Below are positions 2,087 through 50,552 of a stretch of DNA of 64,000 bases, piece after piece. The notes under the pieces are model-generated. The model did no database searches and was not told the DNA's origin. It saw only the letters and a program-made list of their open reading frames with translations. How positions within the stretch are numbered: position 1 is the first letter of the stretch; the number at the start of each line of letters is the position of its first letter. Source of the DNA: a virus (Duplodnaviria > Caudoviricetes); IMG/VR virus record IMGVR_UViG_3300027740_000003, positions 1-64,000 of that record; one strand, 5' to 3'. A program made the translations under genes and the position numbers.

Positions 2087-3241
2087 CTATATTTTGTATG
2101 CTAATGCTTCTGTTATCATTCCAAGCGTAGCAAAGTCTACCAAATCAGAATTTAACAAGTCTCTAACTGTTTTTACTACAACGGTTGTTCTTTCCGAATC
2201 AGCTTCGACTCCACGCACCTGGTCTTTTGTATCAATTAAATGTTGAATATCTTTATCTGATATTGGTGCACAGAACAATTCCTGCTTGTGAATAGAAAAA
2301 GTTCCCATTCCTTGTCTATTGCTCATCTGAGATAAGTCTGACGGCTTGATTTCAATACCCGTTTCCTCACGAATTTCGTCAATAATTACCTTCTCAGGGC
2401 TATTTTTGGTTGTTGAAGAGCCTCCTGGAAGCTCATATACAAAACCATCCTTAGATGTATTGCCAGGAGAACGGAATTCTCTTACCAAAACAACCCTAGT
2501 TTCAAGAAAACTTTTTCCTTGCTCATATAATACAGCCTGAACAACCGGGGTTCTTCTAATAATGAACTCATTAACCTTAATTCTGTTCTCTTCAGGTATA
2601 AATACCTTTACATGAATAGCAAATGAGAACAAAAATCCGTTGCCAACCAAGAATGACCATAGAGGCTTGGCATATTTTAATTCATGCCCGGCCTTTTTTT
2701 GGACAGAATACCACTCTTTAAAGGCAGAATGGTTCCAAAAAATGGACGGAACCCACATTTCTCCATCATTTCTTGGAGTTGCCGGGGTTCTATCAATAGC
2801 TTCTTTACAAGCGTCCTCCAAAGATGAATGAACCTTAATTTTCTTTTCTTTTGCTGTCCAATCAAGATAATTCATCTTTGGAGCATCATCCGGTCTGCCA
2901 TAAACAACCCGGCCAGAACTACAATACAAACCAAACTCTACGTTGGTTGTAAATGCAGGCATATCTTGAAGCTCTCTTGGTACCCAAAAGAGAATTATAT
3001 CAGCAGATTGCATTGCAAGACGTTCCCATTTGATTTGATCGTCTGCACTGAAATCCTTTCCCTCGGGCCCGTCTTCATACTCAGGAACATATACTGTTCC
3101 GTCGTACCCCAGCTTTTCCAGCAAAGCTAACGCCTCGGGACGCCAAGATTTTACATTGGGATCCCTCGGAGTTGGGCCGGCCAGAAATAGGCTTCTAGAT
3201 ATAGAAGTCGGGAAGGAACTGCAAGAATACCTAATATCCAT
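2087..3241 (-). CDS. Nucleoside 2-deoxyribosyltransferase-like domain fused to NUDIX hydrolase
   Basis: N-term LFLAGPTPR..SWR..A, QIKWE..AM..ADIILFWVPR...TTNVEFG; C-term ELPGG...EIREETGI NUDIX-like box. Confidence 0.8.
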   Translation of the reverse strand: MDIRYSCSSFPTSISRSLFLAGPTPRDPNVKSWRPEALALLEKLGYDGTVYVPEYEDGPEGKDFSADDQIKWERLAMQSADIILFWVPRELQDMPAFTTNVEFGLYCSSGRVVYGRPDDAPKMNYLDWTAKEKKIKVHSSLEDACKEAIDRTPATPRNDGEMWVPSIFWNHSAFKEWYSVQKKAGHELKYAKPLWSFLVGNGFLFSFAIHVKVFIPEENRIKVNEFIIRRTPVVQAVLYEQGKSFLETRVVLVREFRSPGNTSKDGFVYELPGGSSTTKNSPEKVIIDEIREETGIEIKPSDLSQMSNRQGMGTFSIHKQELFCAPISDKDIQHLIDTKDQVRGVEADSERTTVVVKTVRDLLNSDLVDFATLGMITEALAYKI

Positions 3242-3246
3242 TTATT

Positions 3247-4107
3247 TCACCATTTGTCGTCATCATCATATCCGTTATCATGACAACTATAACCGTCATC
3301 ATCATAATCATCATCATCTTCGTCTTCTTCGTCTTCCTCATCATAGTCTGCGGAAGCTCCATATAGAGGAGACTCTTTATACTCTGCTTTGATCTCTTCC
3401 AGCACAGTAAATGCACACACTCTCATTTTTGCTTGATTATAATCTGTTGGGACGGCAACAACGTCTTTTGGATTTACTTTAACAGCAACCAACCGCCCAC
3501 TACCAGAATGGTAAAAATTACAAGCATATTCGTAATTAGCAACGTGAAGACCATAAGAACATGTTTGAGTAGGGTCTTCATTTACCCTGTTCCTAGGCAT
3601 AGAAACTTCAGCACCAATACTGTTATCAACTTTATTGGTGTAAAAGTCTTTAAAATTATCACTAACTCTACGATATGCTAGAAAACATCCATCGACAGTA
3701 AGAGGATGATTGTTCTTTTCCAAGAAATCATGTAGTTGTTGAACGCTACGATAGGATGGGTTTAGATTAAGATTAGCCCAGAACCTAAGCAAAGGCTCTA
3801 CCGGAAGGTTGTTCTTGGCAAAATCAAGAATTCTCATTGAGAGAGAATATGGCAAAGCCTCGTCGCCAACATATACCACATCCCCTTTTACAGTAAAGGT
3901 TGAACTAAACTTATCTGAAATTGGTTTGGTGGGAGTCAGTAAATCAGGAATGATTTCCCAATTTTTATCTGCAATTGCTTTAACCACTTCAGCAAATAAC
4001 TTATCTGTGGTTAGAACCGAACGAGGTTGCCCATCTGGGCAAGTAATAGTAATCTGCTTGTCGGTCTTGATGAAAGGAAGTCCAGTTTTTTGCCAATCAG
4101 TATTCAT
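3247..4107 (-). CDS. rIIB: rIIB-like protein
   Basis: LHDFLEKNNHPLTVDGCFLAYRRV, MPRNRVNEDPTQTCSYGLHV, VKVNPKDVVAVPTDYNQAKMRVC; acidic tail; follows rIIA. Start moved to ATG at 4107. Confidence 0.88.
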   Translation of the reverse strand: MNTDWQKTGLPFIKTDKQITITCPDGQPRSVLTTDKLFAEVVKAIADKNWEIIPDLLTPTKPISDKFSSTFTVKGDVVYVGDEALPYSLSMRILDFAKNNLPVEPLLRFWANLNLNPSYRSVQQLHDFLEKNNHPLTVDGCFLAYRRVSDNFKDFYTNKVDNSIGAEVSMPRNRVNEDPTQTCSYGLHVANYEYACNFYHSGSGRLVAVKVNPKDVVAVPTDYNQAKMRVCAFTVLEEIKAEYKESPLYGASADYDEEDEEDEDDDDYDDDGYSCHDNGYDDDDKW

Positions 4108-6322
4108 TTTCTTCTCCGTCTGTTGTTGCAATGTAGCCATTCGCCGACTGTCTGTCAAGCTCGGCATCAATCAAACACACATATTTTAATATAGCTTCAA
4201 ATTGATGGTCTATATCAATCGAAATCATTTTTAATATAGGGTATAATTCGTTTATTTTATCTTTTAAAGCAAATAGTGGTAGGTTTTCCTTGTCTTTACA
4301 TGATACATCTATTCCAGCAATTTTCATTAATTTTAATAATTGTTCATATTTTTTATTGTTTTCATATATTTGTTTTGATAATTTAACATATTCGTATAAC
4401 GCCCCTTCACAATGAACGGAGGTTATTTTTTCTATTTTTTTTATTAGAAAATGGCTATAATAATGAGTGTTGAAATTGTCTAAATATCCAGCACCGATTT
4501 GTTCAGAAAATTCTATTAGTTGCTCAGATGTTAGATTGTTTTCTACTAGTTTAGAATCTATTTCATTTTTAATATAATCTTTTAATTGGATCCAGCCTGT
4601 TCCAATATCGTTTTTATCTTTTTGTCTAATTGCAAATACTTTAATATCTTTGAAATATTCAATTAGGAACAACATGTTTTCATATGAAATATCTTTTTCA
4701 CCAGAAGTAATAACATTGTTTTGGCCAGAGGTAATAACGTATATTCCATTACCTTGTTCAACATCAATCTCAGCAGGCTGCCAATAATGATCACATTTCC
4801 TGCCACCTTGATATGTTAGATTAAACACAAAAGCTTTAGCCAAACTTCGACCACTAGTAGTTCTATTTCTTTTTTGTTTAATTTTCTTCGGAGCATCAAT
4901 TGATGATAGTAAAATTGGGTTTAAAATGTTTAAATCGAAATTATTATGCTTTTCAAATGATTTTAATCCCTGCTCGACGTCTAATTTAGAAAATGTAATA
5001 ACTTGAACTAAATTGTTGTCATGTGGATTATATCCATTTAACTCCATAAAATATTCTATTCGACTTCTGGCAATACTAGAGTCGCTAAGATCATTAATAA
5101 TGATTTGCATTATAGTATTAATAGTAGAGCCTTCTCTACTTGACACTTGTTTTTTATATTGTCTATTATTTCTAGCCCAAAATGCCTCGACATGATATTT
5201 TACATCATCTTCTTTTATCGCAGGATATTCAATTTTCAAGTTATGTTTTACTTTGATTCCATTCCATTCTGGAATATAATCATCAGGTAAAGCAAATTGA
5301 AAATTTCTTTCAATTTCTATATTGTTTTTTACTGCCTCAATATAAGACGGGGCATTGCCAATTTTATCTATAGCAAGCGCTTTGACCTCAGATAAAATTT
5401 GATCTAATCGTGTATTTATTATCTTCTGAGTTTTGGTATCATATTGCAACTCTTCCCTGTTTGCCGAAAGAGTCATCTCTCCATTATTAACAAAGAACTC
5501 AGACTGTCTAACAACTTCTCTTTTTAGAGAAATATTTTCCCCAGATAAAAATATGTTATCTGGATTTAAAGGATAGGCAATTCCGTCAATAATTGCCAAA
5601 GATCTTCTGTTATAATAACCCGAATATTTGCACAATCTATATTCTTTGGTTTCAAAGAAAGACTGTAGTTTATCTGGCCAGTGGGGAACGCCATTTCCTT
5701 TTAGGATGGGAAGAACGTTCCAATATTGGCACACCTCTACTGTTGCTTGGGCGAATTTTTTCCAATCATCCGGAGCAACAACTAATGAAATTTCTGTTCC
5801 AGTTTCTTCGTCTGTTGGGGACTCTGCTATGAGTCGCATTTTCCCAGTAGATGAAGCATCTATATAAGCAATATAAATTCTTTTTACATTAGAGCCGTCT
5901 TGACAAGGGTTCTTTGTAGTTGTAGTAATACTGAATTGATCAGAATAGGCAAAAGGAGTCTTGGCGCCTAGACCAAAACCACCAGTTTGAAAATCATCAT
6001 CATTTTTAGTGCTTATTCCATAACGAATAAACACGCCGGCCATTCTTTGATGAGAAATGCCTGGGCCATAATCTTTAACAACATAATGCTCATCAAAAGC
6101 ATTTGGTATATGAATTTCAATTGGCCTATCTGGTGTTCCAATTTCTCTATGAGCATCCCTTGCATTGCAGGAGATCTCTCTTGCAATAGCTTTAATTGGA
6201 TTAGAATACATTGAATTGCGAAGGATAACCATAATCCTTCCAATGTTTCCAATTTGGAACTCTTCCTCATAAAGGCAGGCCCCGCCAGTTTCAACACTTG
6301 GTTTATAATCCTCGATCCTCAT
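4097..6322 (-). CDS. rIIA: rIIA-like protein (N-terminal GHKL ATPase)
   Basis: MYSNPIKAIAREISCNARDAH, VKDYGPGI, STK..., GGFGLGAKTPFAYSDQF; paired with rIIB. Confidence 0.9.
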   Translation of the reverse strand: MRIEDYKPSVETGGACLYEEEFQIGNIGRIMVILRNSMYSNPIKAIAREISCNARDAHREIGTPDRPIEIHIPNAFDEHYVVKDYGPGISHQRMAGVFIRYGISTKNDDDFQTGGFGLGAKTPFAYSDQFSITTTTKNPCQDGSNVKRIYIAYIDASSTGKMRLIAESPTDEETGTEISLVVAPDDWKKFAQATVEVCQYWNVLPILKGNGVPHWPDKLQSFFETKEYRLCKYSGYYNRRSLAIIDGIAYPLNPDNIFLSGENISLKREVVRQSEFFVNNGEMTLSANREELQYDTKTQKIINTRLDQILSEVKALAIDKIGNAPSYIEAVKNNIEIERNFQFALPDDYIPEWNGIKVKHNLKIEYPAIKEDDVKYHVEAFWARNNRQYKKQVSSREGSTINTIMQIIINDLSDSSIARSRIEYFMELNGYNPHDNNLVQVITFSKLDVEQGLKSFEKHNNFDLNILNPILLSSIDAPKKIKQKRNRTTSGRSLAKAFVFNLTYQGGRKCDHYWQPAEIDVEQGNGIYVITSGQNNVITSGEKDISYENMLFLIEYFKDIKVFAIRQKDKNDIGTGWIQLKDYIKNEIDSKLVENNLTSEQLIEFSEQIGAGYLDNFNTHYYSHFLIKKIEKITSVHCEGALYEYVKLSKQIYENNKKYEQLLKLMKIAGIDVSCKDKENLPLFALKDKINELYPILKMISIDIDHQFEAILKYVCLIDAELDRQSANGYIATTDGEENEY
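4130..4158 (-). promoter_or_regulatory. sigma70-type promoter inside the 3' end of rIIA, serving rIIB
   Basis: TTGACA-17-TACATT. Confidence 0.65.
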
Positions 6323-6399: not shown

Positions 6400-6801
6400 T
6401 TATCCATAATAATCCGTGTCCCCATATCTATTTTTTAACTGATCAATAACAACATAACACACAGGCGGGTTTAACTTTGCCAATTTTTTATTTTCTTTAT
6501 GCGTCCTATACTGTTTTAAAGCCTGCTCTTTTGTTTTAAATATCCAACAATGTATTGTGCCATAGTATAATTCCGGGTTGCCATTTGTTGTATCTAAACA
6601 AACCCAACACATTGTTCCAATTAATTTTTTATTATATTTTGAAACAAGAAACGGATTATTTGTTTGTTCTAATATAGAATCGATAGATCTATGTGCAGTA
6701 TAATAATTGTTATTTGTTTCCCCGTCAACCCAAAAAATTTCCGGAAGAGCCATTGGATAATAGTTCATTTTCTCTAATGGTTTCGTATTTAACTTTAACA
6801 T
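6400..6801 (-). CDS. Hypothetical protein
   Basis: 133-aa ORF abutting the kinase gene. Confidence 0.6.
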   Translation of the reverse strand: MLKLNTKPLEKMNYYPMALPEIFWVDGETNNNYYTAHRSIDSILEQTNNPFLVSKYNKKLIGTMCWVCLDTTNGNPELYYGTIHCWIFKTKEQALKQYRTHKENKKLAKLNPPVCYVVIDQLKNRYGDTDYYG

Positions 6802-8492
6802 TATCTCATCTTTATTGAATAGGCCTTGTTGCCTTTATAGAACATTGTTTGAACACCACACGAGAATAACCTCATATCTCCGTCCAGAACATCATCCTCG
6901 ACTTCTTTTGCCTGATTATTATTTCTCTGTGCTGGAAACAATACTAACTTATCGTCCTCGTTTAGATGAGCACAAATCCCATTGTCAAGTACAGTAAAGT
7001 TTATACCAGAATAGTTAACGTCTTTATATTCTTTAATATCATATCCGTCATATGCAGAGGCCAGCCTTATTATATATTTATTGTATTTGCCGCCTTTGTT
7101 TGTGATAACCATTAATACTTTTCTTTCAAATTTGGCATCAATAATCTTTTGCCCATCAAGTTCTTTTATATTTAATTGGTAATGTTTACCACTATCAGGA
7201 AAGAAAGACACATATGTCGAACCAAGAAGGTTTTGTATTACACATCCGTCAAATAATTTTGAACCATAAGGCAATACATTAGCAACTTGAGACGAACCTG
7301 CAATTATATTATTCCCAATATCGGTTAGGTTAAGCTCATATATTGCATTGTTGCTTTTTATATATAATCTATTATCATATTTCATTATTTCAGACGCACT
7401 TAATATTGTTGGAACATCTGTTTTATTTGTAAGATTTTTTAGTTTAAGTAATCCATTGTCTATATTAGCAGCAATAATAGTATTTCTTCCAGGCAAACAT
7501 ATAATTTTAGAATCCAATGGTGCAGGATAGGTTTTTCCATTAATAATAGCACCATTGGTTGTTAAAACCGCTTTGGTTGGACTCCAGATTATATCAATAA
7601 TATCTGAATTAAAACTGTCCAATTCAACTATTTCAAATAGATTGCTGCCATTAACAGTTTTAACAACAATGGCCACATTAGCCACAGAGAAAGGATCGTT
7701 TGGTGGGGCCTCTCTTTTACCATCCTTTAGAACCCCTTTAAACCAATTCAGATAAGCTTCTGGGATTACGGTGAGGGGGTAGCATACCGCCGGCAAAGAT
7801 ACGTTAGAATCGAAAATAGACACGTTCCTGTCCATTCTTTCTTCCCAGGAACCAATCGTAGGATGTTTTCCTTTATAAGGATGAATCCCAACAAATAGGT
7901 TAAATGAAATGATAGCAAAAGAAAACCAATCAGAACCTGTTGTCCATTTATTATTTTTAACCTGTCTGTCTCTAATGTTTTCCATAATTGCTGTGGCCGG
8001 AAAACTCTTTGTTTGATAAGAGTCTACATCAATTCCATACAATTTTGTTGCATCTTCTGTTATTAAATAATTAAGCTCATTTAAATCAACAATAAGAATA
8101 TTGTTTTTATGACAAAAAGAAACTATATTTTGTAATTTTCTAACTAATTCTAATATTGTTTGTTCAGATATATTATTTCTTTTCCTATAAGTTCTAGTAA
8201 AAGCTTTACATAAGGCTACAGTATCTTTCACATAGCGCATAGTGTAGCCAACATTATGGCCTTTTGAATCTAGAAGAATATTATCTGGTTTTATGATAAT
8301 ACTTCCCGGGGAAGGTTCGTGGGTCAGAACAGAAAGTTCTTGTATTTTCCCTAAAGGAATAGCTTTTTTATGATCTAGGTAGACCTTGTAAGCTATTCCA
8401 TTACGAACAAAAACTTGACCTTCGCCACCTTGGGCTAGAAGATCTTGTTGGGTTAGATTAATTTCACCCTGCCCTTGAACAACAAGTTTCAT
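6801..8492 (-). CDS. Ser/Thr protein kinase, YegI/TerY-P-associated type
   Basis: LAQGGEGQVF Gly loop, AYKVY, VDLNELNYLI catalytic loop, GIDVDSYQ, SDWFSFAI, GIHPYKG. Confidence 0.85.
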   Translation of the reverse strand: MKLVVQGQGEINLTQQDLLAQGGEGQVFVRNGIAYKVYLDHKKAIPLGKIQELSVLTHEPSPGSIIIKPDNILLDSKGHNVGYTMRYVKDTVALCKAFTRTYRKRNNISEQTILELVRKLQNIVSFCHKNNILIVDLNELNYLITEDATKLYGIDVDSYQTKSFPATAIMENIRDRQVKNNKWTTGSDWFSFAIISFNLFVGIHPYKGKHPTIGSWEERMDRNVSIFDSNVSLPAVCYPLTVIPEAYLNWFKGVLKDGKREAPPNDPFSVANVAIVVKTVNGSNLFEIVELDSFNSDIIDIIWSPTKAVLTTNGAIINGKTYPAPLDSKIICLPGRNTIIAANIDNGLLKLKNLTNKTDVPTILSASEIMKYDNRLYIKSNNAIYELNLTDIGNNIIAGSSQVANVLPYGSKLFDGCVIQNLLGSTYVSFFPDSGKHYQLNIKELDGQKIIDAKFERKVLMVITNKGGKYNKYIIRLASAYDGYDIKEYKDVNYSGINFTVLDNGICAHLNEDDKLVLFPAQRNNNQAKEVEDDVLDGDMRLFSCGVQTMFYKGNKAYSIKMR

Positions 8493-9192
8493 TTTTCAGT
8501 ATTTCCTTTTCACTTTCCTCAATAATCTTTTCCCATTCGGGAAGCATTTCTTCATTATATTCTTGCTCAGCTACCCTAATTTTCTTGGCAACATTCTTAT
8601 TTCTGCTATATATTCTATACAAAAGACAAAACATTATTAATGTTTGTACCAAAGCAATTATTGCTAAAAACATTATATTGATCAAAAACAATACGACCGT
8701 TGCTAGAATTAGCAATAAAGCTATTGATATGTTAATATACTTTAATATATTAAGTTTTTTATTTAATTGGTTTAGCCTATTTATTTTTTGTTTGGCCGAT
8801 TCTCGTTTGCATATAAAGTTCCAATCTTTTCTGTAATAAGTTATTTGTTCATCACAATTCTCACACGATACATAAAAAAGATCACTATATTCATTATATG
8901 TCCAAGACAATTTATAAACTTTACACTTTTTACTACAATTACAAAACGGTTTATTTAAAACAAAAACCAATTTATAATTATCACTAGAAGTTTTGTCATC
9001 TATTATTTTTACATCATTTTTGTTAATATAAATGTTTTTTAAACAACTTTTACATTTTAAACAGAAAGAATCTTTTAAAGAATAGTTTGCGTGTCTATTA
9101 GGAATCCAAACTACTAAGCTTTGTTGTTCTTTTGAACAATCACAAAAATTATAAGGAATATTGAAATGTAATGTTAATGGAACATTGGTCAT
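8464..9192 (-). CDS. Membrane protein with Cys-rich N-terminus and two-helix TM segment
   Basis: Several CxC/CxxC pairs; hydrophobic ISIALLLILATVVLFLINIMFLAIIALVQTLIMFCLL. Confidence 0.65.
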   Translation of the reverse strand: MTNVPLTLHFNIPYNFCDCSKEQQSLVVWIPNRHANYSLKDSFCLKCKSCLKNIYINKNDVKIIDDKTSSDNYKLVFVLNKPFCNCSKKCKVYKLSWTYNEYSDLFYVSCENCDEQITYYRKDWNFICKRESAKQKINRLNQLNKKLNILKYINISIALLLILATVVLFLINIMFLAIIALVQTLIMFCLLYRIYSRNKNVAKKIRVAEQEYNEEMLPEWEKIIEESEKEILKNETCCSRAG

Positions 9193-9827
9193 TTTGCAAC
9201 TACCATTTCTGTCTCATAACAATTTTCCAGCTCTTCTAACATTGGTTCATCATCTATTTTGATTCTAATATTTTTATTATACTCTTCAATAATTTTATCA
9301 TATTGTTGCACCAATAGTTCGTTTAATTTTAATTCATTTTTGGCAATATTTTCTAAACAGAACCTGTATTTTGCATAATAAACATAGTATAAAATAACAA
9401 CTAGTGTTGTAAGAAATACTACTCCTATTGGAATTGTGTATAAACTAATAAACAAAGGAGGAATTGATAAAAGGAAAAAAAATATGCATAAAACAAACGC
9501 ATCTATCATTGTGGATTTTTTATCTTTTTTATTCTTCTCAAGTTTGTTTTTGATATCTTCAATCTCTTTCTCTAACTTATCTTCAGTTTTAGTTTCTTTT
9601 TTATCATCTTCTTTATTTAAATTTGTTTCTTTTGTTATTATAAAGTCCGCAAAAGTATTATTATATGCTCTTTTTACTATTAGACCCCGGTTTTTAAAAT
9701 ATTCTTCTGTTTCTTCGGAAGCAATGCCATTATAAAAATATGATAACTCTCCTAATTTAATAGATTTAACAATACCATTTTCAATTTTCTCTATTTGTTT
9801 CTCTACAGTTTCGCTATATGCTGACAT
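9189..9827 (-). CDS. Membrane protein (coiled coil + two TM helices)
   Basis: Hydrophobic AFVLCIFFFLLSIPPLFISLYTIPIGVVFLTTLVVILYYVYY. Confidence 0.65.
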   Translation of the reverse strand: MSAYSETVEKQIEKIENGIVKSIKLGELSYFYNGIASEETEEYFKNRGLIVKRAYNNTFADFIITKETNLNKEDDKKETKTEDKLEKEIEDIKNKLEKNKKDKKSTMIDAFVLCIFFFLLSIPPLFISLYTIPIGVVFLTTLVVILYYVYYAKYRFCLENIAKNELKLNELLVQQYDKIIEEYNKNIRIKIDDEPMLEELENCYETEMVVAK

Positions 9828-10627
9828 TTTGATTCCTCATATTGCTCTTGATCTGATTCGGCAATAATTTTATCCCATTCAGGTTCCATAATTTTATTAT
9901 ATTCATCCTCTGCTATTCTAACTTTCTTTTTATTTGGTTTATAAAAAAGAAAATATCCAATGACAGATGTAAACAATGTTGCAACAACAAAAGCTACAAC
10001 GCTTGCTGGTATAGATAAAACAAAAAACATAGACGTTAGAATTGCATATGTTAATATAAAATATCCTGGTATAACATATAATTTATTAATTCTAAATTCA
10101 TTTTTAGCAACAGCTAGCTTGTCTTCTGGAGATAAAGAAAAACAACTGCCATCAAGACATTTGGTTAAATAATTTGTTTCATTATATTTAATATCTTTAT
10201 CAAAAAAAAGATTATTTACTTTATCAATAAGTTTTTTTAACCAATTCGTTTCTTCATATTTGAGAGATTTAAGAGCTTCATCAAGCTGTTTTTCCACTTC
10301 TTCGTGTGGAATTAATTTAGGTCTATTATTTAGATCATACCGGAACATGTTTTCTATAGCGTCATGTGGTTCTAATTGTTTTAGAGAAAGATTGTTGCTC
10401 AAACGAATTTTTTCTAAAGATTTAATCATAGCAGACTCTTCATGGTCTGACATAATTAAATCAATAATCAAACGTTCCTCTTCTTGAGCTGTCATAATAT
10501 GGCGTTTCGTTTCTTGTGTTGTTATTTTTGGTTGAATAGAAGAATCTATCTTCAATACTTTATTGCGTTTTCTTTCTACCTCTTCAAGAGAAATAAAAAG
10601 CGTCGGAGGAGGCGGAAGCATTCCCAT
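9803..10627 (-). CDS. Membrane protein, C-terminally paralogous to 8464..9192
   Basis: Two TM helices then KKVRIAEDEYNKIMEPEWDKIIAES. Confidence 0.65.
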   Translation of the reverse strand: MGMLPPPPTLFISLEEVERKRNKVLKIDSSIQPKITTQETKRHIMTAQEEERLIIDLIMSDHEESAMIKSLEKIRLSNNLSLKQLEPHDAIENMFRYDLNNRPKLIPHEEVEKQLDEALKSLKYEETNWLKKLIDKVNNLFFDKDIKYNETNYLTKCLDGSCFSLSPEDKLAVAKNEFRINKLYVIPGYFILTYAILTSMFFVLSIPASVVAFVVATLFTSVIGYFLFYKPNKKKVRIAEDEYNKIMEPEWDKIIAESDQEQYEESKCQHIAKL

Positions 10628-10694
10628 ATTATTTCCTATATATTTCTTTTCAAGTCGGCCTGAACAATTTTTACATACTACATTGCAACCGGAA

Positions 10695-12626
10695 TTATAA
10701 CTCTTCTAATTCTTCTTCCATTCCGGAACTAAGAATAGGCCATCTGCACCAACTCCTAGGATCTAAATTCTCATCATCAAAATGGAAGCTTGGAGCGTAC
10801 CTTTCTCGTTTCCATTGATTCCGACTCCATAGTCTGAAGAACTTCTTAATCCACTCTTTTAATTTTTCATCTTCTGTTCCAGGAAATTCATTCATCGCTC
10901 TAAAATAATCAAAACATTCTTTGGGAGAAAGCTTATCTCGAATTGCTTTTTCCTCAATTGCTTCCAATGCCCAATATGGCATTAAATCATCTTCGTCTAT
11001 TTGATTCTGATCTAATGGACGAAGCTCAGCACTTGGACAAAGGTTTTTATAAAACTCTAAAGGTCTTGAATATTCTTTTTTGGACAAATAATCAAGCCAA
11101 GAAAGAACAAACTCTTTATCAATCCCGGCAATAGGAGCTAATCCTCCACAAGTATCGCCATCCATTGTTGCATATCCAACAGCTGCTTCGCTTCTATTGC
11201 TTGTGGTCAACAATAAAGCGTTTTTGATATTGGCCAACAACCATACGCTTGGAACCCTTACTCTAGCTTGAATATTCTGTAAAGCAACGTCATCCTTCTC
11301 CCAAACTAATTCTCTGCCAATCATTTCTTCAATTTTGAACAAATAATCATTTATAACATTATCAACATAAATCAAATAAAATTTAGCCCCCAGTTCGGCA
11401 GATAATTTTCTAGCAGAATGTAAAGTTTCTAAATCATTATTTTTTGTTTTTTGATATACACAAGTTAATATTTTTTCCAAAATATTTTTTTTATTTGTTC
11501 CATATTTTATCCCAAAGTAATTAAATATTGCTTCTGGATTTTCACACATAACATTTTCAACCATTTTGTGAACCATAATAGCCACAGCGCTGCTATCCGC
11601 TCCTCCACTTAATGAAAGCACAAATCCATTAGACTTGCTTTTTCTCATATAATCCCACAAAGCAAGCGAAGACGCAGCACTGAATTCTTCAAACTTATTC
11701 AAAGAGATCTGTGCGACAAACTTGTTTTCATTATCAAAAGTGGCTTGTGGAAATTTAACAGAGGCAGTTTTAGAATTAATGCAATCTTCTGGACGATACA
11801 TTCCATTTGCACACTGTGCCGTTCTTGTCTGGTCAATGTCAACAATAGCTGTAGATAAATAATGATCTTTAAAAGAAAACCTTTTCCCACATGACAACAG
11901 ATTTCCATTGCTAGCAATGATCGTATCTCCGTCATAGATGATTCTGCCAGCTTCATTGCCTAACAAATTAGCATAAATATAAGTACAGCGAAATGCTCTA
12001 GACCCCTCTAGAACAAATCGCTCTCTTATTTCGGATTTTCCAAATGCAAAATGGCTTGCACTAGGATTCAGAATGATATCCACACCATGAGAAGCTAACT
12101 TGATTCCCGGTCTATCAGCAACCCAGGCATCTTCACATATTTCAAACCCAATTTTAATTCCATCAATGTCTAAAATAGAATCGCCAATATAACAGCCTTT
12201 AACCATAGAAGAACAACCGTCCTTCCACGGTTTAAACCAACGGGATTCATAATGAATTCCATCGGATGCCAGGTTTTTCTTAGCGGCAATATAAAGAACT
12301 TTACTAATAGCAAATTCTTTTTTCCCAATAACCGCAGAACAATTATACAAAGCATTATTCCATCGGACAGGTAAACCAACCGAAAAAATAACACCAGTAT
12401 CTAATCGTTCTAGTCTTTCAAGAACTTCCCAGGCTTTTTCAGCCACATGATTGGATAAAAAAACATCTTCACAACCATATCCTGTGATGCAAAGCTCAGG
12501 AAGGCACAATAAACCAACCCCTCTTGCTTCAGCTTCTTTAATTGCCGCAACAATACGGTTATAATTCCCCTCCCAATCAAGGGGAATTTGGTTTACAGAG
12601 GCGGCTCCGACCTTAATTAGTCTCAT
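10695..12626 (-). CDS. nadE: Glutamine-dependent NAD+ synthetase
   Basis: Nitrilase domain (LPELCITGY, AAKKNL, FEICEDAW) plus synthetase domain (LSLSGGADS, NIQARVR, TSNRSEAAVGYATMDGD, PSAEL). Confidence 0.95.
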   Translation of the reverse strand: MRLIKVGAASVNQIPLDWEGNYNRIVAAIKEAEARGVGLLCLPELCITGYGCEDVFLSNHVAEKAWEVLERLERLDTGVIFSVGLPVRWNNALYNCSAVIGKKEFAISKVLYIAAKKNLASDGIHYESRWFKPWKDGCSSMVKGCYIGDSILDIDGIKIGFEICEDAWVADRPGIKLASHGVDIILNPSASHFAFGKSEIRERFVLEGSRAFRCTYIYANLLGNEAGRIIYDGDTIIASNGNLLSCGKRFSFKDHYLSTAIVDIDQTRTAQCANGMYRPEDCINSKTASVKFPQATFDNENKFVAQISLNKFEEFSAASSLALWDYMRKSKSNGFVLSLSGGADSSAVAIMVHKMVENVMCENPEAIFNYFGIKYGTNKKNILEKILTCVYQKTKNNDLETLHSARKLSAELGAKFYLIYVDNVINDYLFKIEEMIGRELVWEKDDVALQNIQARVRVPSVWLLANIKNALLLTTSNRSEAAVGYATMDGDTCGGLAPIAGIDKEFVLSWLDYLSKKEYSRPLEFYKNLCPSAELRPLDQNQIDEDDLMPYWALEAIEEKAIRDKLSPKECFDYFRAMNEFPGTEDEKLKEWIKKFFRLWSRNQWKRERYAPSFHFDDENLDPRSWCRWPILSSGMEEELEEL

Positions 12627-12632
12627 GCGACC

Positions 12633-12660
12633 AGTATAACCACCATGCCAGCCGTGTCAA
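12633..12660 (-). promoter_or_regulatory. sigma70-type promoter, nadE (leaderless geometry)
   Basis: TTGACA-16-TATACT, then 6 nt to ATG. Confidence 0.7.
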
Positions 12661-12695
12661 GGGGCCGCCCATAGTTGTTATTATTCAATAATCTT

Positions 12696-14009
12696 TCATT
12701 TCTTTATCTGTTGCATCCACCAGGCCCTGGACCGGTCCATTATTGCTTTGGCAACCTGTTTCCACTGTAAACCTGATTCCTCTAGCTCGGCAACGCTCTC
12801 CCTCTGCACATCCTGGCCGAATTCTTTTAGAAATTGACCAATATTTTTCATGTCAATTCCCCCAACCTTCTGTGCAATCTGTTCTAATCTATTATCTGTA
12901 CAAAACAACTCAACAAATTCGTTGATAGTAGAGACAAATTCTGGATTAATCTGTGCTGGTTGCTTTGAATTAACTACTTTATGTGCCTCTCCTTTGGCTT
13001 TAAATACCAAATCTGTATAATCTTGTTTGCTGATTAAAGTTTTGCCATCTAGAATAGGATACATTACAACCCCTTCCCCTATTCCTTCTATTCCAAATGT
13101 TTCTTTTACCCAAGGATCACATTTCTCCACATCGGCTACCATTTGGTTGATAACTTCTGTTGACTTTTTTAATTGATCCTCATCAAAATAGTCTAACTCA
13201 ATTTCGTTCCCATACCAAGGAATGATATAAACATCAGGCTCATTGTGTGGGCCAATGATTTTGGCAATTTCTGCCGGATCTGTTTCTAAATATCCATCAA
13301 TGGAACCAATTTGAATAGCAAAGATGGCCATAATCCGTTTATCAATCTTTGAAATGGCACATCTTTTTTGAATGGATTGTCCACAAAACTCTCCAAAAAT
13401 AACCAAATGATCTTTAATGCCCAAGCTATCTGCGTTCTTTCTAACATTAAGAAAAAAGTTATATTTAGCTACTGTCCAGGCAGCTGACCCCATGTTGTCT
13501 TCTTTGACACTGATGACTCTAGCATGACTTTGAGGGATAACTTTCAAACCATCATAATCAGATGGAGTCAGTTGAATACCAATATTCGTACCGTCAGCTT
13601 TGCATTTTGCCCGGTAAATGACCTTTCTTTCAAGCCCTTGTTTTTGCAAATCTCTTCGTACATTAAATAGGGACTCGATATGTGGCCAAGCAATTAAACT
13701 ACCGGCAGCCGGTTCTGGCTTGCAATATTCTTCTGACAAATCCGTTCCTTCTGAAGCTCCAGTTTTGCCTAATGCCATTCCATAAGAAGGGATATTTCTA
13801 ATTTTATGTGTTCTAATCGCCGTTCCATCTTTTAGTATAGATCCTGCCAAAACGATGGTGGCAATATCCCCAACCTCATATACGTTTTCTAGATTTGCTA
13901 CAATCTGAATTGGATCTGTTTTTTGAGGACAAACGAATTGGTATAGTTTTAAAGCATCGGCATTAGGATGCTTTTCGGCTTTAATACAACGCATTGCTAT
14001 TGCTGTCAT
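12696..14009 (-). CDS. RNA ligase (Rnl2-like) with N-terminal tRNA-binding OB domain
   Basis: N-term EKHPNADAL...QIV...GD...IRNIPSYGM (PheT-like OB); KADGTN (motif I), FGEFCG, EGIGEGVV, FKAKGEAH. Confidence 0.8.
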   Translation of the reverse strand: MTAIAMRCIKAEKHPNADALKLYQFVCPQKTDPIQIVANLENVYEVGDIATIVLAGSILKDGTAIRTHKIRNIPSYGMALGKTGASEGTDLSEEYCKPEPAAGSLIAWPHIESLFNVRRDLQKQGLERKVIYRAKCKADGTNIGIQLTPSDYDGLKVIPQSHARVISVKEDNMGSAAWTVAKYNFFLNVRKNADSLGIKDHLVIFGEFCGQSIQKRCAISKIDKRIMAIFAIQIGSIDGYLETDPAEIAKIIGPHNEPDVYIIPWYGNEIELDYFDEDQLKKSTEVINQMVADVEKCDPWVKETFGIEGIGEGVVMYPILDGKTLISKQDYTDLVFKAKGEAHKVVNSKQPAQINPEFVSTINEFVELFCTDNRLEQIAQKVGGIDMKNIGQFLKEFGQDVQRESVAELEESGLQWKQVAKAIMDRSRAWWMQQIKK

Positions 14010-14010
14010 T

Positions 14011-14805
14011 TTATTCTCCTAAATATATTCCTGCCACTGAAACATCATCGTAGTTTTCCCAGCCCAACTTTGGCATATCTTTTATAAATCTTTTTACTCT
14101 CCTCTTTATAAACTCTCCTTGATATCCTTTGAATGCCAATAGTTCTTTTAATACCTCATGATATGTTATCGGAACATTACCTTTGCTACTGTCCGATACT
14201 ACTTTTTTGGTAAAAGACTTTACTCCATCAGACATCAATAGTATTGCTTTATAAGCAAGTCTGTCAACATAAAAATATTGAAAACGTTCTTTTTGTTCTG
14301 TAATTGTTCCATCTTTGGTACTGCTGATAATAGCTTTGGTACCATATTTTTCTATATATTTATCTTCCCTTTCTTTATTTAAAGAATAAGAAAGATACCA
14401 CGGGGCTCCTGATGGATATTCTATATCTATAATATCTAGAGAATCATCATTGTTAATAAAACCCAATACCCCGTCTCCAATAACTTGAATCCAAACAAGT
14501 ATATCATCGGATATCACGGACAACAACGTAGCATCTAAACAGTCCGTGTCAACTCCCGGAAAACAAGAACATATACGCGCCGCATTATCAATAAACTTTT
14601 TGTCAAATAGGTTTTCGTGAGTTGTTGCTATTCTTTCCTCGGCAGAACATACTAGAATCCTTGCTCCAATATCTGTATGTTCCGAGCTGGAACATCCATC
14701 CGAAATAATTGCATATGATGCTCCCATGTTTGTTCTGCCACATCTAGAATAATCCTCACATACATTGTGAGACTTACCAGTAAAGAAAAAACAATCTGAA
14801 TGCAT
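14011..14805 (-). CDS. PP2C-family protein phosphatase
   Basis: GKSHNVCEDY, AIISDGCSSS, IGDG, LLMSDG, YDDVSV; start set at ATG 14805. Confidence 0.85.
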   Translation of the reverse strand: MHSDCFFFTGKSHNVCEDYSRCGRTNMGASYAIISDGCSSSEHTDIGARILVCSAEERIATTHENLFDKKFIDNAARICSCFPGVDTDCLDATLLSVISDDILVWIQVIGDGVLGFINNDDSLDIIDIEYPSGAPWYLSYSLNKEREDKYIEKYGTKAIISSTKDGTITEQKERFQYFYVDRLAYKAILLMSDGVKSFTKKVVSDSSKGNVPITYHEVLKELLAFKGYQGEFIKRRVKRFIKDMPKLGWENYDDVSVAGIYLGE

Positions 14806-15030
14806 ATTGCCCCTAATAATAATTGAACCCGCCAATTAAACGGGTTCAATTATTCAAATATATAAACGTCTATTCCGCAGATTCTAAATCTTGGTTCCGT
14901 ATTCTCTTTTTTGTAATTATAGAAAAAGAAATAACGTTTCCAAGAACGGTTCCACTCCTTTGGATTAGTATAACCAATCCAAAGGTTATTGGAAATAAAC
15001 CACATTATTGATTGGCCAGTTTTTGGCATA

Positions 15031-15786
15031 TCAAATCGTCAACGAACCATTAATGTTAATAACCTGTGATGGTCCGCCAGTTCCAAGACTTTGGCTCTGC
15101 GAAGAAATACTCTTGGAAATAAACTTGTTTAACTTAGCTAACGTAGATGCTGAAGCGTCATTTAGCTTAACAAGCTGATCAAACTTACCTTCCTTCTCAA
15201 GCTTATCAAGATAAGTAGGGCTAATGCTAGACGAATTTACTGCAACAAGTATGGTAAGAATGGATTCTAAAGCCTCTTCTTTAACACAAGAATCCTTTGC
15301 GTTTCCCACTCCTTGAGATCCAAACTTGGATACATTGTCCTCACCGTCCGTAATTACAATTACAATACCGTTAACATCAACGTCATTGGCATTTAATTGC
15401 TTGGCATAGTTTTTAATACCCTCAACTGCATCAATTGAAGCATCAAAACAAGCCGTGCTTCCACCACAGGACAGGACTCCAGAATAATCATTGATCTGAC
15501 AGTTTTCCAACAGTTTAAATCCATGAACTTCTTCTGGGGTATTGGCAAATTTAATTACCCTAACCATAAGGTTGTCTGCTCTAGGAGAATACTGAAGCGC
15601 TTTAATTGCTTCCTTGGTACACTTCTCCAGCTCTGATTGAAAAGATGCAACAGAACCACTTACATCAACAACAATTGTTGCTAAAGTATATTCGGATGCC
15701 CCAAGCTGGTCCATCCGAACACCAGAGAATCCGAAATGGCCAACGTTGGCATTTTCTTCCATTGTATTGTCATTTAATCGAGGCAT
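15031..15786 (-). CDS. vWA-domain protein (TerY-like)
   Basis: MIDAS VDVSGSV, GGSTA, VITDGEDN. Confidence 0.8.
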   Translation of the reverse strand: MPRLNDNTMEENANVGHFGFSGVRMDQLGASEYTLATIVVDVSGSVASFQSELEKCTKEAIKALQYSPRADNLMVRVIKFANTPEEVHGFKLLENCQINDYSGVLSCGGSTACFDASIDAVEGIKNYAKQLNANDVDVNGIVIVITDGEDNVSKFGSQGVGNAKDSCVKEEALESILTILVAVNSSSISPTYLDKLEKEGKFDQLVKLNDASASTLAKLNKFISKSISSQSQSLGTGGPSQVININGSLTI

Positions 15787-15799
15787 TGTATTATTCCTT

Positions 15800-16453
15800 T
15801 TACTTCAATTCTTCTTGTTCTTCATCTGTTAAAAACGATTCGTTAGCATCAGCATCATTTGTTAATCTCATTCGAGACATTCCACGGCTCAAATTAGTAT
15901 AAACCGCTTTTGTTCCAACACGGTTGGCAGAATAATTATATGCATTTTGCGGAGCTATACCTAAAGAAGTGGCTTGTGCTGATTGAAAATCAGGATCCCC
16001 TCCTCCAAGGAACACAAATGACCACTGGTATTTGTCGGTCTGATGGTGCACCATCTCTTCCACTTTTTCTGCAAGGAATTCCTGCGAAGAATTCTCCTGC
16101 CCATCTGTAATAATTAAAAATACTACTTTTCCTGGTCGTTTATCTTCCTCTGTATTTGCTAGCCTTTCGCCAACAGTATTAATTGTCTTCCCAACCGCAT
16201 CTAACAAAGCAGTCATTCCTCTCGGAACATATGTTGTTGTGTCCAACGGCTTTACATCATTGATGTCTACACCGTTGTAATCAATTTGATACTGATCATC
16301 AAATTGAACCAATGTTAAGATTGCTTTGCCTTCCAATTTTTGCTGTTCAGTTAAGAAATTATTGAAACCGCCAATGGTTTCATTAACCAGACATGACATA
16401 GAACCAGAACGATCTATGATTGCTACAATTTCTGTTAGATTTTTATCTGTCAT
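15800..16453 (-). CDS. vWA-domain protein
   Basis: IDRSGSM, PRGMTALLDA, IITDGQEN. Confidence 0.88.
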   Translation of the reverse strand: MTDKNLTEIVAIIDRSGSMSCLVNETIGGFNNFLTEQQKLEGKAILTLVQFDDQYQIDYNGVDINDVKPLDTTTYVPRGMTALLDAVGKTINTVGERLANTEEDKRPGKVVFLIITDGQENSSQEFLAEKVEEMVHHQTDKYQWSFVFLGGGDPDFQSAQATSLGIAPQNAYNYSANRVGTKAVYTNLSRGMSRMRLTNDADANESFLTDEEQEELK

Positions 16454-16458
16454 TTGTA

Positions 16459-17253
16459 TTACCTCAAAAACTTATCTGTGGTTGAAAGCTGCATTCCTTT
16501 GGAAACCATCTCTTTGATGAAATCCTCCTGGAGTTTTTCAAAACCAGGAACTGGACTTGTTGCATCTGTTAGAAGAACAAGCTTCTTAATGTAAGAAGCA
16601 TCATTGAACTGTGTTGCTAGGTCGCGAATACTATTAGCAAGACAATGTGATCCTGCTTCGCCAGCAACAACAATCAAATCGGCAGTCATTAGTGTTTGAA
16701 CTAATGCTGTATTAACCTGTGTTGACGGATCTTTGGGATCAGGAACGTCAGCCTGGAAGATTGAGTAATGCTCAGTCTTGATGTTGCTCCCTTTGGTGAC
16801 GTAATCGACTACAGCGAATTCCTCTTCCCATTTACAAAGAGCATCAAACAAAACTGGAACAACAGTGTGTCCACGGCTAGAAATGAGGCAGTGAGCTGGC
16901 CATACACATAATGGGTACCTGCCATTCTTTTCCAATTGCTTTACATAATCCAAAGAGTGTCTTTGGAAACTAGGTTGTGTCGCCATCCATCGACCAGATT
17001 CTACATCACTAACCGAGATAACTGTGAACGGACTTGGATGATCTCCGTTGCTGTTTCTCCACCAAATTGGATGAGCAATATGAACAGGATGATGACTGTC
17101 TAAAGTGATATGGATATCGTCTAATTTAGACGAACATCGTAGAACGAAATCTGTAAGCCTTGCCATGTCATCATCGGCACCTGGAACAAACAAAGCTCCA
17201 CTGGGTTCCGAAAAATCAATTTGCGGATCAATTACGAAGAGATGAACTTTCAT
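16459..17253 (-). CDS. pncA: Nicotinamidase/isochorismatase-family hydrolase (PncA-like)
   Basis: VIDPQIDF (Asp), LDSHHPVH (metal ligands), VTKGSN (Lys), EAGSHCL (Cys). Confidence 0.8.
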   Translation of the reverse strand: MKVHLFVIDPQIDFSEPSGALFVPGADDDMARLTDFVLRCSSKLDDIHITLDSHHPVHIAHPIWWRNSNGDHPSPFTVISVSDVESGRWMATQPSFQRHSLDYVKQLEKNGRYPLCVWPAHCLISSRGHTVVPVLFDALCKWEEEFAVVDYVTKGSNIKTEHYSIFQADVPDPKDPSTQVNTALVQTLMTADLIVVAGEAGSHCLANSIRDLATQFNDASYIKKLVLLTDATSPVPGFEKLQEDFIKEMVSKGMQLSTTDKFLR

Positions 17254-17286: not shown

Positions 17287-17315
17287 ATCATAGTCATCCG
17301 GGCCCGTTCTGTCAA
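17287..17315 (-). promoter_or_regulatory. sigma70-type promoter for the pncA-vWA-vWA-PP2C-ligase unit
   Basis: TTGACA-17-TATGAT. Confidence 0.75.
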
Positions 17316-17361
17316 GCTCCGGATGGCCAGGAATACTTTTGTATTATTTTAGGAGGAAGAT

Positions 17362-18198
17362 ATGGGCATTATTCAAACAATTAAATCAACAATCGTGAAA
17401 CCAACAATTAAAATTGGAGGATGGCTTCCAGATCCTGCCAATAAAATATATTGGAAATTTGATAAATCTATTCTTTCTTTAATAGAAAGCAAAATACAAT
17501 ATAAAAGTGGTCAAAATGTTGATCTTCGTCCATATTCAAGTCCTCGACATAATCAAGGATCTACATCAAGTTGTGTTGGAAACGGTTTAATAAAAGCTCT
17601 TGAAATAAAAAGAATTATTCAACACGGTCATTCAGCTCATGTTGATTTATCTAGATCTTTTTTATATTACTACGCTAGGGCTAGAAAAAATCCACCCATG
17701 ACAAATGAAGATTCGGGTTGCTACATATATATTGCATGTGATGTAATGAGAAATATTGGAGTGTGCTCAGAAAGCCTACATCCTTTTTCAACAAAAACAA
17801 TAAACAAATGTCCATCTCAAATGGCAGCAAGAGAATGCAGATTAAACAGAATCAAATCTCATTTCAAAATTAAGTCTCAAGGCAATGAAAGATTAGATGA
17901 TATTATTTTTAATCTACAGGCTGGAAATCCTGTTGTATTTGGAACAACTGTTGGTCAAGATTGGATAGATTATAAAGGTGGAACCTTGGGTGTTGAAACA
18001 AGGCCTATTGGTGGCCATGCGCTTACTGTTGTCGGACATATAAACGGTCTGTTTATAATTGAAAATAGCTGGGGAGGAGGATCTTCTTGGGGGGAAGACG
18101 GTTTTGCATATGTTAAACCAGAAGTATTAACACATCCATCAACTAGAGATCTTTGGGTAATTGTAGATGGTTCTGAAGCTTGGACGGAGAAGAAATGA
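17362..18198 (+). CDS. Papain-like C1 cysteine peptidase
   Basis: NQGSTSSCVGN, GGHAL, IENSWG triad; AGGAGG RBS upstream. Confidence 0.9.
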   Translation: MGIIQTIKSTIVKPTIKIGGWLPDPANKIYWKFDKSILSLIESKIQYKSGQNVDLRPYSSPRHNQGSTSSCVGNGLIKALEIKRIIQHGHSAHVDLSRSFLYYYARARKNPPMTNEDSGCYIYIACDVMRNIGVCSESLHPFSTKTINKCPSQMAARECRLNRIKSHFKIKSQGNERLDDIIFNLQAGNPVVFGTTVGQDWIDYKGGTLGVETRPIGGHALTVVGHINGLFIIENSWGGGSSWGEDGFAYVKPEVLTHPSTRDLWVIVDGSEAWTEKK

Positions 18199-23900: not shown

Positions 23901-24231
23901 ATTTTTTATCTTTCAGTTCATTGAGTATTGAAAAAATGGAGACATATTCGCCACTTTTCTTGTGTTTGAGAACATAATCACCTTCGTCCCCTTTGTCAAG
24001 GCAGAACTCACTGATAGAAGGCATATATGGTGCTTTAGGAATAATAAGCTCTTCTGCGTATGTCTGAGGAGAAGGAGATGGATCCGTTGACCTAATTAGT
24101 TGAATAGGCACTCGTTTTCCAGAATACATTTCAAATGCTTCGGCAATTAATATATGTTCCTCCGGACTAACATTAACTTGATCGAAGAAATACCTGAGGT
24201 ATTCTATTTCATTGGCAATAGGTTTGCTCAT
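23887..24231 (-). CDS. Hypothetical protein
   Basis: 114-aa ORF. Confidence 0.6.
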   Translation of the reverse strand: MSKPIANEIEYLRYFFDQVNVSPEEHILIAEAFEMYSGKRVPIQLIRSTDPSPSPQTYAEELIIPKAPYMPSISEFCLDKGDEGDYVLKHKKSGEYVSIFSILNELKDKKYGQG

Positions 24232-31499: not shown

Positions 31500-31528
31500 A
31501 ACATAAGTCTTTTGGGCCGTCTTGTCAA
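31500..31528 (-). promoter_or_regulatory. sigma70-type promoter
   Basis: TTGACA-17-TATGTT; -35 inside GTCTTG-A-CAAGAC palindrome. Confidence 0.65.
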
Positions 31529-31752
31529 GACCCAGGCTCTTCTTCGGTCGATGGGCCGGGAACATCAACAGGCTCTTTGTCAGAAACAATTCCGGAATTT
31601 GGAGGAACCCAGTCCTCCTTCATAGAAGTAAATTGCTCGGCCGGAACCTGATAGTTGTTTAACGAGGATGGCATTGGTTCAGGAATAAATCCCTCATCTC
31701 GGAAGGACGAAACTGTAATTGCGGCAAGTAGAAGAATTGTTCCTGTTGTCAT
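31525..31752 (-). CDS. Small protein with N-terminal hydrophobic segment
   Basis: MTTGTILLLAAITVSSF...; start reset to ATG 31752. Confidence 0.5.
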   Translation of the reverse strand: MTTGTILLLAAITVSSFRDEGFIPEPMPSSLNNYQVPAEQFTSMKEDWVPPNSGIVSDKEPVDVPGPSTEEEPGS

Positions 31753-50288: not shown

Positions 50289-50552
50289 TTAGAACGAGTT
50301 TCCATCTGGGCGAAGCATTCTTTCTGGCATGTTTTTGTTATTACATTTTAACCAAGCCTCGATTAATTTTGCATGTTTACAATAATTAGAGCACCTACAT
50401 CCTGGACTATCACAGGACCATTTCTTTTTAGACCGGTGGATAATATAAATTGCTACAGGCTCCTTGTCAAGGTCCCATTTTGATACTTCAAAAGTATCCC
50501 AACGAAGTTCACGAATCAGGTAGCCTACTTCCATTTGGTTCCTATTATTCAA
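50289..50552 (-). CDS. SWIM zinc-finger protein
   Basis: WSCDSPGC...CKHAKLI. Confidence 0.7.
   Translation of the reverse strand: MNNRNQMEVGYLIRELRWDTFEVSKWDLDKEPVAIYIIHRSKKKWSCDSPGCRCSNYCKHAKLIEAWLKCNNKNMPERMLRPDGNSF
50442..50470 (-). promoter_or_regulatory. Possible internal sigma70-type promoter
   Basis: TTGACA-17-TATATT within the SWIM gene. Confidence 0.45.

Follow-up and report, generated by a model that had tools for sequence, protein, structure and literature searches.

Depletion of nicotinamide adenine dinucleotide (NAD+) is a major anti-phage strategy of bacteria, and the Preiss-Handler salvage of this cofactor runs through PncA, PncB, NadD and NadE. The known phage answers, NARP1-3, are to our knowledge unregulated enzyme pairs. 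NARP1 corresponds to Adps/Namat, NARP2 to Nampt/NMNAT and NARP3 to PnuC/NadR (10.1101/2024.02.11.579819; PMC13464706). A different kind of system is the TerY-P triad, which combines a Ser/Thr kinase and a PP2C-like phosphatase with a von Willebrand factor A (vWA) protein and has been interpreted as a phosphorylation switch that depends on metal (Anantharaman, Iyer and Aravind 2012, as outlined in PMC11090510). Its kinase carries a C-terminal zinc ribbon, replaced by an OB fold in the defence modules of Gao et al. 2020 (same source). In the related locus of E. coli, yegI/pphC/yegL, the kinase YegI is reported as a two-pass membrane protein (Rajagopalan and Dworkin, 10.1101/819920; also 10.1101/303594). 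Here we describe a cassette of four genes, encoding nicotinamidase, vWA, PP2C and kinase, which is compared with both kinds of system and which lies in region 6801-17253 of the window, i.e. the first 64 kb of a virus record of 435,004 bp (IMGVR_UViG_3300027740_000003) rated complete by CheckV.

The recurrence of the region was analyzed in 83 viral or metagenomic loci, in which 10 kb on each side of the kinase gene were searched with the window proteins, and in 80 further loci obtained from a prokaryotic scan with one genome per species. Scans of the viral contigs that used single sequences of kinase and PP2C returned nothing, and an alignment query was required. Within 10 kb of the kinase, the viral loci contain the PP2C in 81 cases, a vWA protein of 251 residues in 76 and the nicotinamidase in 75, while a nicotinamidase homologue is found at the same distance in 57 of the 80 prokaryotic loci. 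The order nicotinamidase-vWA-PP2C-kinase on one strand is kept in 99 of the 104 non-redundant loci that host all four genes (59/64 viral, 40/40 from bacterial assemblies), hence the grouping is far beyond chance. The real unit is thus a set of four genes, encoding a nicotinamidase, a vWA protein with a metal ion-dependent adhesion site (MIDAS), a PP2C and a YegI-type kinase-propeller protein.

All ten genes that an earlier note on this DNA had named were recovered at the same positions, closely packed and all on the minus strand, by open reading frame (ORF) calling together with Pfam, PHROG and NCBIfam scans, and the vWA, PP2C and kinase genes of the TerY-P-like architecture it had recognized are present and linked. 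The note had counted two vWA proteins in the set and had taken the NAD genes as interleaved with it. Both vWA genes exist, but only the one at 15031-15786 belongs to the conserved set, and nadE is indeed an insertion, whereas the pncA-like gene is a core member. Similarly, the neighbourhood search that it had proposed for five families, carried out in phages and bacteria, shows pncA, vWA, PP2C and kinase recurring, but the fused RNA ligase in none of the related loci searched.

Four of the 64 viral four-gene loci are permuted to PP2C-kinase-nicotinamidase-vWA, which shows that the pncA-vWA and the PP2C-kinase pairs move as blocks. Bacterial copies are compact and operon-like, with median gaps of 30-66 nt (the gap between nicotinamidase and vWA has a median of 30 nt in bacteria and 53 nt in viral loci). 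They are carried by chromosomes of 3.8-6.2 Mb of Capsulimonadaceae and Chthonomonadaceae (Armatimonadota), and also by Pyrinomonadaceae, Myxococcota, Thiotrichales and Desulfobacteraceae. These data bear on the simplest alternative, namely that the genes are syntenic passengers of an inherited genome segment with no shared function. The minus strand carries nearly all window genes, so that co-orientation alone is weak as evidence, and phage cassettes are often interrupted, with a median of 1.7 kb of extra DNA. Nonetheless, the same genes appear in the same order in phages and several bacterial phyla while their surroundings differ, permuted loci move them as blocks and bacterial copies keep short gaps, which leaves the passenger explanation extremely improbable.

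The phylogenies, built with FastTree and unrooted, give no direction for phage-bacterium transfer. The kinase tree of 151 rows mixes viral rows with those from bacterial assemblies and shows at least 10 changes of phage/bacterium label. The window kinase falls into a well supported set of 65 rows, mostly viral, and a separate clade of 52 rows holds zero viral rows and tracks the taxonomy of Armatimonadota and Acidobacteriota. This last clade, which includes Mb-scale chromosomes, speaks against all bacterial loci being binned phage contigs. Some small contigs of metagenome-assembled genomes are probably binned phage DNA, as is the case of L140, near-identical to the viral locus L067. The deepest kinase split is recovered in the remaining trees with 6 changes for the PP2C (38.9 with shuffled labels), 9 for the vWA (37.4) and 5 for the nicotinamidase (38.4). 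The four gene trees are congruent and the cassette is co-inherited. The earlier note had left the common origin of kinase and PP2C to a comparison of their trees, and this test does not refute it, since the deepest kinase split is mirrored in that of the PP2C. The same note had proposed that this phage captured and rearranged the triad. The cassette is instead old and widespread in huge phages and bacterial chromosomes, with no private capture, and its presence in both makes it a clear case of repeated module exchange. Within an otherwise mixed clade, the kinases of L137 (an Armatimonadota contig of 1.36 Mb) and L053 (viral, 479 kb) are sisters with branches of 0.28 and 0.34, which suggests a recent exchange between a huge phage and Armatimonadota and is perhaps a clue to the host.

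Concerning the individual members, gene 1 (16459-17253) encodes a protein of the isochorismatase superfamily, of 264 residues and with zero Pfam matches. A profile of 27 homologues run against the PDB matched nicotinamidases only (6/6, best 2h0r, 5.4e-13), and the AlphaFold2 model, with a pLDDT score (predicted local distance difference test) of 95.3, has nicotinamidases as its top 13 Foldseek PDB matches (2wta with E 2e-14 and TMt 0.80). A catalytic triad, Asp9-Lys154-Cys204, and a metal site, Asp52/His54/His61, are conserved among the 27 sequences, with Lys154, Cys204, Asp52 and His54 invariant and Asp9 and His61 present in at least 90%. Fold, Asp-Lys-Cys triad and Asp/His metal site are those of PncA/Pnc1, and the assignment as a nicotinamidase holds, its activity being predicted from alignment and model. 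Two characteristics set it apart, a conserved insert at residues ~62-115, which defines a long form that exceeds the solved bacterial PncA chains (173-216 residues) by ~60-80 residues, and the fact that it is always encoded beside the vWA, PP2C and kinase set.

Gene 2 (15031-15786), of 251 residues, matches PF00092 narrowly (24.1 bits, with a cut-off of 23.8) and also PF13519. Its MIDAS is complete in an alignment of 28 sequences, with Asp41, Ser45, Thr111 and Asp147 invariant and Ser43 in at least 90%. The C-terminal tail is Ser-rich and strikingly conserved (SxSISSQSQ-LGTGGPSQ, with Ser224, Ser226 and Ser231 invariant), which makes it an obvious candidate for a phospho-acceptor. E. coli YegL also appears Ser-rich at its end when inspected by eye.

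Gene 3 (14011-14805) encodes the PP2C, which matches PF13672 (PP2C_2) with 7.5e-13 and 48.9 bits for a cut-off of 24, and whose metal-binding Asp46, Asp121, Asp203, Asp263 and Asp264 are invariant in 28 sequences. The start most likely corresponds to the ATG at 14805 and not to the TTG at 14835, given the Shine-Dalgarno spacing AGGGG-N5-ATG and the match to the N-terminus of the family.

Gene 4 (6801-8492) encodes a Ser/Thr kinase of 563 residues (Pkinase 2.8e-7). Its full-length homologues number more than 1,781, and many of them are encoded on contigs of 100-620 kb. Its kinase domain (residues 1 to ~260) aligns with E. coli YegI (hhalign probability 97%, E 9.7e-11, 275 columns; BLASTP 2e-6), so the earlier assignment as YegI-type stands, and the invariant residues are Gly22 and Gly23 of the G-loop, Lys36, Asp136, Asn141 and Asp155. 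In the AlphaFold2 model (pLDDT 88.6) residues 276-563 build an all-beta propeller, and the top Foldseek matches are the LRRK2 kinase plus WD40 (E 9e-11) and the propellers of clathrin and Nup159. The model has no helix past residue 256 and shows neither a membrane segment nor a zinc ribbon nor an OB fold. Conserved cysteines in the alignment are limited to Cys95 and Cys507 (each in at least 90%), with no Cys cluster, and the linker of the window protein contains a single one. LRRK2 is the best match to the whole model and has the same succession of a kinase domain and a C-terminal propeller. With 10-13% identity, no relation of organism or context and only the kinase and propeller domains in the phage model, this is a resemblance of architecture and not membership.

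As judged from the conservation of catalytic and metal-binding residues, all four proteins look active, and this is relevant to the first of the two functions offered in the earlier note, in which the phage copies would neutralize a host system of TerY-P type, with the PP2C erasing host phosphorylation and the vWA proteins titrating partners. Phage and bacterial versions are indeed homologous and repeatedly exchanged, as the sister kinases of L137 and L053 illustrate. A decoy would need neither an active kinase nor a nicotinamidase, and yet more than 60 phage loci keep the complete set with conserved catalytic residues, while the additional vWA family of the window is common in phages that have no PP2C and kinase genes nearby. 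We consider the decoy function very unlikely.

The cassette shares with TerY-P three linked genes for vWA, PP2C and kinase, and its PP2C and kinase show the corresponding PP2C and YegI-type features. It departs from that family in two defining features, since the kinase ends in a beta-propeller where TerY-P kinases have their zinc ribbon or OB fold, and the neighbours are devoted to NAD salvage (and in this phage also to RNA repair) instead of tellurite resistance or restriction. The nicotinamidase as a fixed fourth member is a further difference. Compared with the E. coli proteins, the kinase shares with YegI atypical catalytic-loop and post-kinase motifs, but in the model it is soluble and carries a propeller. 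The PP2C belongs to the same Pfam family as PphC/YegK (PF13672). Beyond this, the similarity of the PP2C and the vWA to PphC and YegL is generic only: BLASTP of the PP2C and both vWA proteins of the region against PphC and YegL was not significant, hhalign was weak (14.7% probability for the cassette vWA and YegL) and TerY-specific models gave no match to the cassette vWA. The E. coli locus is moreover without a nicotinamidase. Consequently, the earlier label of E. coli yegL/pphC/yegI type does not apply. The four genes form a cassette of their own, in which the nicotinamidase is the best conserved member and the kinase bears a propeller. PADLOC returned no TerY-P match for any protein, nor for the YegI/PphC/YegL control, so that this null is uninformative. 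In a full-text literature search, no paper was found on a prokaryotic or phage system that combines a nicotinamidase with PP2C, vWA and kinase proteins, two large surveys of jumbo phages mention neither a nicotinamidase nor a PP2C/TerY triad, and a nucleotide search of GenBank phages with the region gave no match.

The genes found around the cassette point to NAD salvage. Beside 14 bacterial cassettes nicotinate phosphoribosyltransferase (NAPRTase) is found 7 times, the NAD metabolism regulator NrtR 3 times and ADP-ribosylglycohydrolase and PARP twice each, and 28 viral loci have a NAPRTase no further than 10 kb from the kinase. The analysis also covered 26 phage genomes of 200 kb or more that bear the cassette, of which 21 have a member of the NAPRTase family (14 of them with strong matches; the weaker ones may be Nampt-like), 19 a NAD synthase and 21 a PF01467 protein. 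In this phage, the NAPRTase (PncB; 43758-44906, minus strand; PF04095 4.8e-59, PF17767 5.1e-24) is encoded 26.5 kb from the cassette, and nadE (10695-12626) lies inside it, encoding a glutamine-dependent NAD+ synthetase with CN_hydrolase and NAD_synthase domains (PF00795 9.7e-20, PF02540 7.7e-29, NF010588 3.6e-73). No PF01467 (NadD/NMNAT-type) protein was detected in the 435-kb genome at E <= 0.001. The phage therefore has three of the four Preiss-Handler steps, through nicotinamidase, NAPRTase and NadE, and presumably borrows the host NadD.

Taken together, the identified genes with their intact active sites, the order and inheritance that they share and the neighbourhood of NAD-salvage genes are best explained, with moderate confidence, by a phospho-switch of kinase and PP2C that acts via the vWA on nicotinamide deamidation and NAD+ recycling. 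This corresponds to the second function offered in the earlier note, a phospho-switch tied to NAD status, which fits better than neutralization of a host system, its mechanism being inferred. Kinase and PP2C would set a reversible phosphorylation state, the propeller would act as a sensing or docking domain and the vWA as a metal-dependent adaptor, with the vWA or the nicotinamidase as the probable phospho-target. The switch would gate the first step of recycling from nicotinamide to NAD+, namely the conversion of nicotinamide into nicotinate by the nicotinamidase, with the phage NAPRTase, the host NadD and the phage NadE acting downstream. In the phage this may keep up the NAD+ supply during infection, for example from nicotinamide released by host NADase defences or by NAD-consuming enzymes of the phage itself. 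A complex prediction for the nicotinamidase and the cassette vWA gave a score of 0.02, which speaks neither for nor against binding.

With NARP1-3 the cassette would share the capacity of phage enzymes to rebuild NAD+ from nicotinamide freed by NAD-depleting defences, counter-defence being here only a candidate role. The route differs, since it would pass through deamidation to nicotinate, followed by NAPRTase and NadE, and NARP1-3 include no kinase, phosphatase or vWA set. The adenylyltransferase of NARP2 and NARP3 (PF01467) is absent from the 435-kb genome, whereas Adps/Namat of NARP1 was outside the search, and the paper on NARP3 mentions neither nicotinamidase nor NadE. A more far-reaching version of the phospho-switch, which we regard as unlikely at present, would make this kinase-gated Preiss-Handler route a fourth kind of NAD+ reconstitution in huge phages, with a switch that detects NAD+ cleavage or an infection cue, triggers deamidation and so escapes NADase immunity, and that in bacteria is placed under NrtR for NAD homeostasis.

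Another reading takes the cassette as a conflict module, serving defence in bacteria and counter-defence or superinfection exclusion in phages, in which kinase, PP2C and vWA together detect an invader or immune signal and the nicotinamidase is an effector that takes away nicotinamide and thereby alters NADase, sirtuin or ADP-ribosyltransferase activity or signalling, rather than feeding NAD+ resynthesis. Triads of TerY-P or similar type are linked to restriction or act as stand-alone anti-phage systems (Anantharaman et al. 2012 and Gao et al. 2020, as outlined in PMC11090510), PARP/WGR and ADP-ribosylglycohydrolase genes occur in some bacterial flanks, exchange between phages and bacteria is frequent and the kinase weakly matches models of the defence kinase PD-T4-6. 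The commonest neighbour, on the other hand, is the NAPRTase, which uses the product of the nicotinamidase, NrtR stands beside 3 of the 14 bacterial cassettes, several phages have nadE within the cassette and the flank census shows no recurrent nuclease or typical defence effector, so that a conflict module seems rather improbable.

Several points weigh against the proposed control of NAD+ recycling. Phosphorylation, contact between the proteins and an effect on NAD+ are predictions, as are the cue of the propeller and the assignment of who phosphorylates whom. TerY-P-like modules are otherwise tied to conflict systems, and a defence or counter-defence role apart from salvage flux is possible. 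The link with NAD genes is frequent and not universal (NAPRTase at 7/14 bacterial cassettes, 5/26 phages with no match), and the counts of NAD genes cover cassette-bearing phages only, so they do not quantify an enrichment. Congruence of the trees could in part reflect plain vertical descent of whole genomes. Finally, in the window copy the contiguity of the four genes is lost, and they may not be expressed together.

If the phospho-switch is confirmed, it would be the first control of NAD salvage by protein phosphorylation in prokaryotes and viruses, and the poorly understood TerY-P/YegI-type triads would gain a concrete metabolic output accessible to assays. What the window adds to the family is its most fragmented copy among the sampled loci, a second vWA separated from the cassette and a layout of promoters and spacer. 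This copy spans 10,453 bp, with 6,415 bp of foreign DNA, and is the largest sampled (the next has 9,942 bp, with 5,856 bp extra), bearing in mind that the flank limit of 10 kb hides copies much larger than it. The split locus offers a natural dissection of the cassette, since it still looks functional in separate units, and the pairs to be kept are pncA/vWA and PP2C/kinase.

The first insertion, between genes 1 and 2, is the extra vWA gene (15800-16453, 217 residues), whose product has a MIDAS of the form DxSxS...T...D and matches phrog_7371 with 1.6e-59. Homologues are found in 217 cultured phage genomes, including phages of Streptomyces, Microbacterium and Pseudomonas and the Myxococcus phage Mx1 (46%), and in the huge phage LR745208.1 the homologue lies ~240 kb from the kinase gene. 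An independent copy occurs near the cassette in few related loci only, a handful of the 83 viral ones. From these sequence comparisons, this protein is assigned to a separate, widespread phage family and is not a member of the cassette.

Between genes 2 and 3 lies a spacer of 225 nt (14806-15030), whose minimum free energy of folding, -70.7 kcal/mol, is well below that of shuffled sequences (-42.5 +/- 4.2; z = -6.7). It forms three hairpins, the last being a 16-bp stem located just 5' of the Shine-Dalgarno sequence of the PP2C gene. The spacer sequence is unique in the genome and an Rfam scan of the region, spacer included, found no family. We infer a terminator or attenuator, and it could also be a small structured RNA. 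An ORF of 59 residues at 14850-15029 was rejected as a gene, given the lack of a Pfam match, the strong structure of the spacer and the fact that this slot is usually empty in relatives.

Downstream of the PP2C, the gene at 12696-14009 encodes a tRNA-binding domain of EMAP/Trbp111-like type at the N-terminus, fused to an Rnl2-type RNA ligase (phrog_548 5.8e-36; PF18043, PF01588 and PF09414 near their cut-offs). This fusion recurs over its full length in ~435 homologues, most of them from filamentous cyanobacteria and huge-phage contigs, and is plausibly a repair ligase targeted to tRNA. In the closest relative an unfused RNA ligase follows the PP2C. Concerning nadE, it is found near the kinase in 19 of the 83 viral loci, lies within the cassette in the kinase subclade of the window (L028, L029, L034, L036 and L095) and, in the close relative L169, is situated directly upstream of the kinase region.

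Three membrane paralogues of 274, 212 and 242 residues (9803-10627, 9189-9827 and 8464-9192, respectively) fill the slot before the kinase, the third overlapping the kinase start by 29 nt. Alignment shows that each has a C-terminal hydrophobic hairpin of two helices and an acidic tail, and the first and third match with 5e-11. They share an internal acidic segment after the membrane part (EWDKIIAES, YDKIIEE and EWEKIIEES), and the N-terminus of the third has two Cys-rich CxC...CxxC repeats. They are near-orphans, since a search of 1.84 billion proteins yielded only 4 representatives, and were rejected as conserved partners of the kinase. In close relatives the slot holds unrelated soluble proteins, and it acts like an insertion hot spot and not like a partner site. 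Both the RNA ligase and the paralogues are found in 0 of the 83 viral loci within 10 kb of the kinase, are absent from the genome loci too, and are lineage-specific insertions.

The only sizeable gaps of the region are occupied by two copies of a sigma-70-like promoter motif on the minus strand, CTTGACA-N17-TATGAT upstream of the nicotinamidase gene (17287-17316; 11/12 consensus positions) and CTTGACA-N16-TATACT directly upstream of nadE (12633-12661). In the window, CTTGACA-N16/17-TATNNT occurs 6 times, with 0.09 expected (~60-fold), the other copies being at 23971-24000, 31500-31529 and 50442-50471 (minus strand) and 56165-56194 (plus strand). As judged from the motif, this is probably a promoter class of the phage read by a sigma70-type factor of the host. 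The split cassette would then probably be transcribed in two or three units, with pncA and nadE each leading one of them from a promoter of this type. The spacers of the motif are G+C-rich, and one copy precedes a Ro60-like/TerD gene.

Around the region, the sole sizeable plus-strand gene nearby (17362-18198) encodes a papain-family (C1) cysteine peptidase of 278 residues, is divergent from the nicotinamidase gene and has a homologue in one related locus, L074. On the other side, minus-strand genes encode a HATPase_c_3 protein of 741 residues (4097-6322) and a fusion of Nuc_deoxyri_tr2 (SLOG-like) and NUDIX domains (2087-3241). In the relative L168, a HATPase_c_3 homologue is located directly 3' of the kinase gene and is followed by rIIB and an ATP-dependent DNA ligase.

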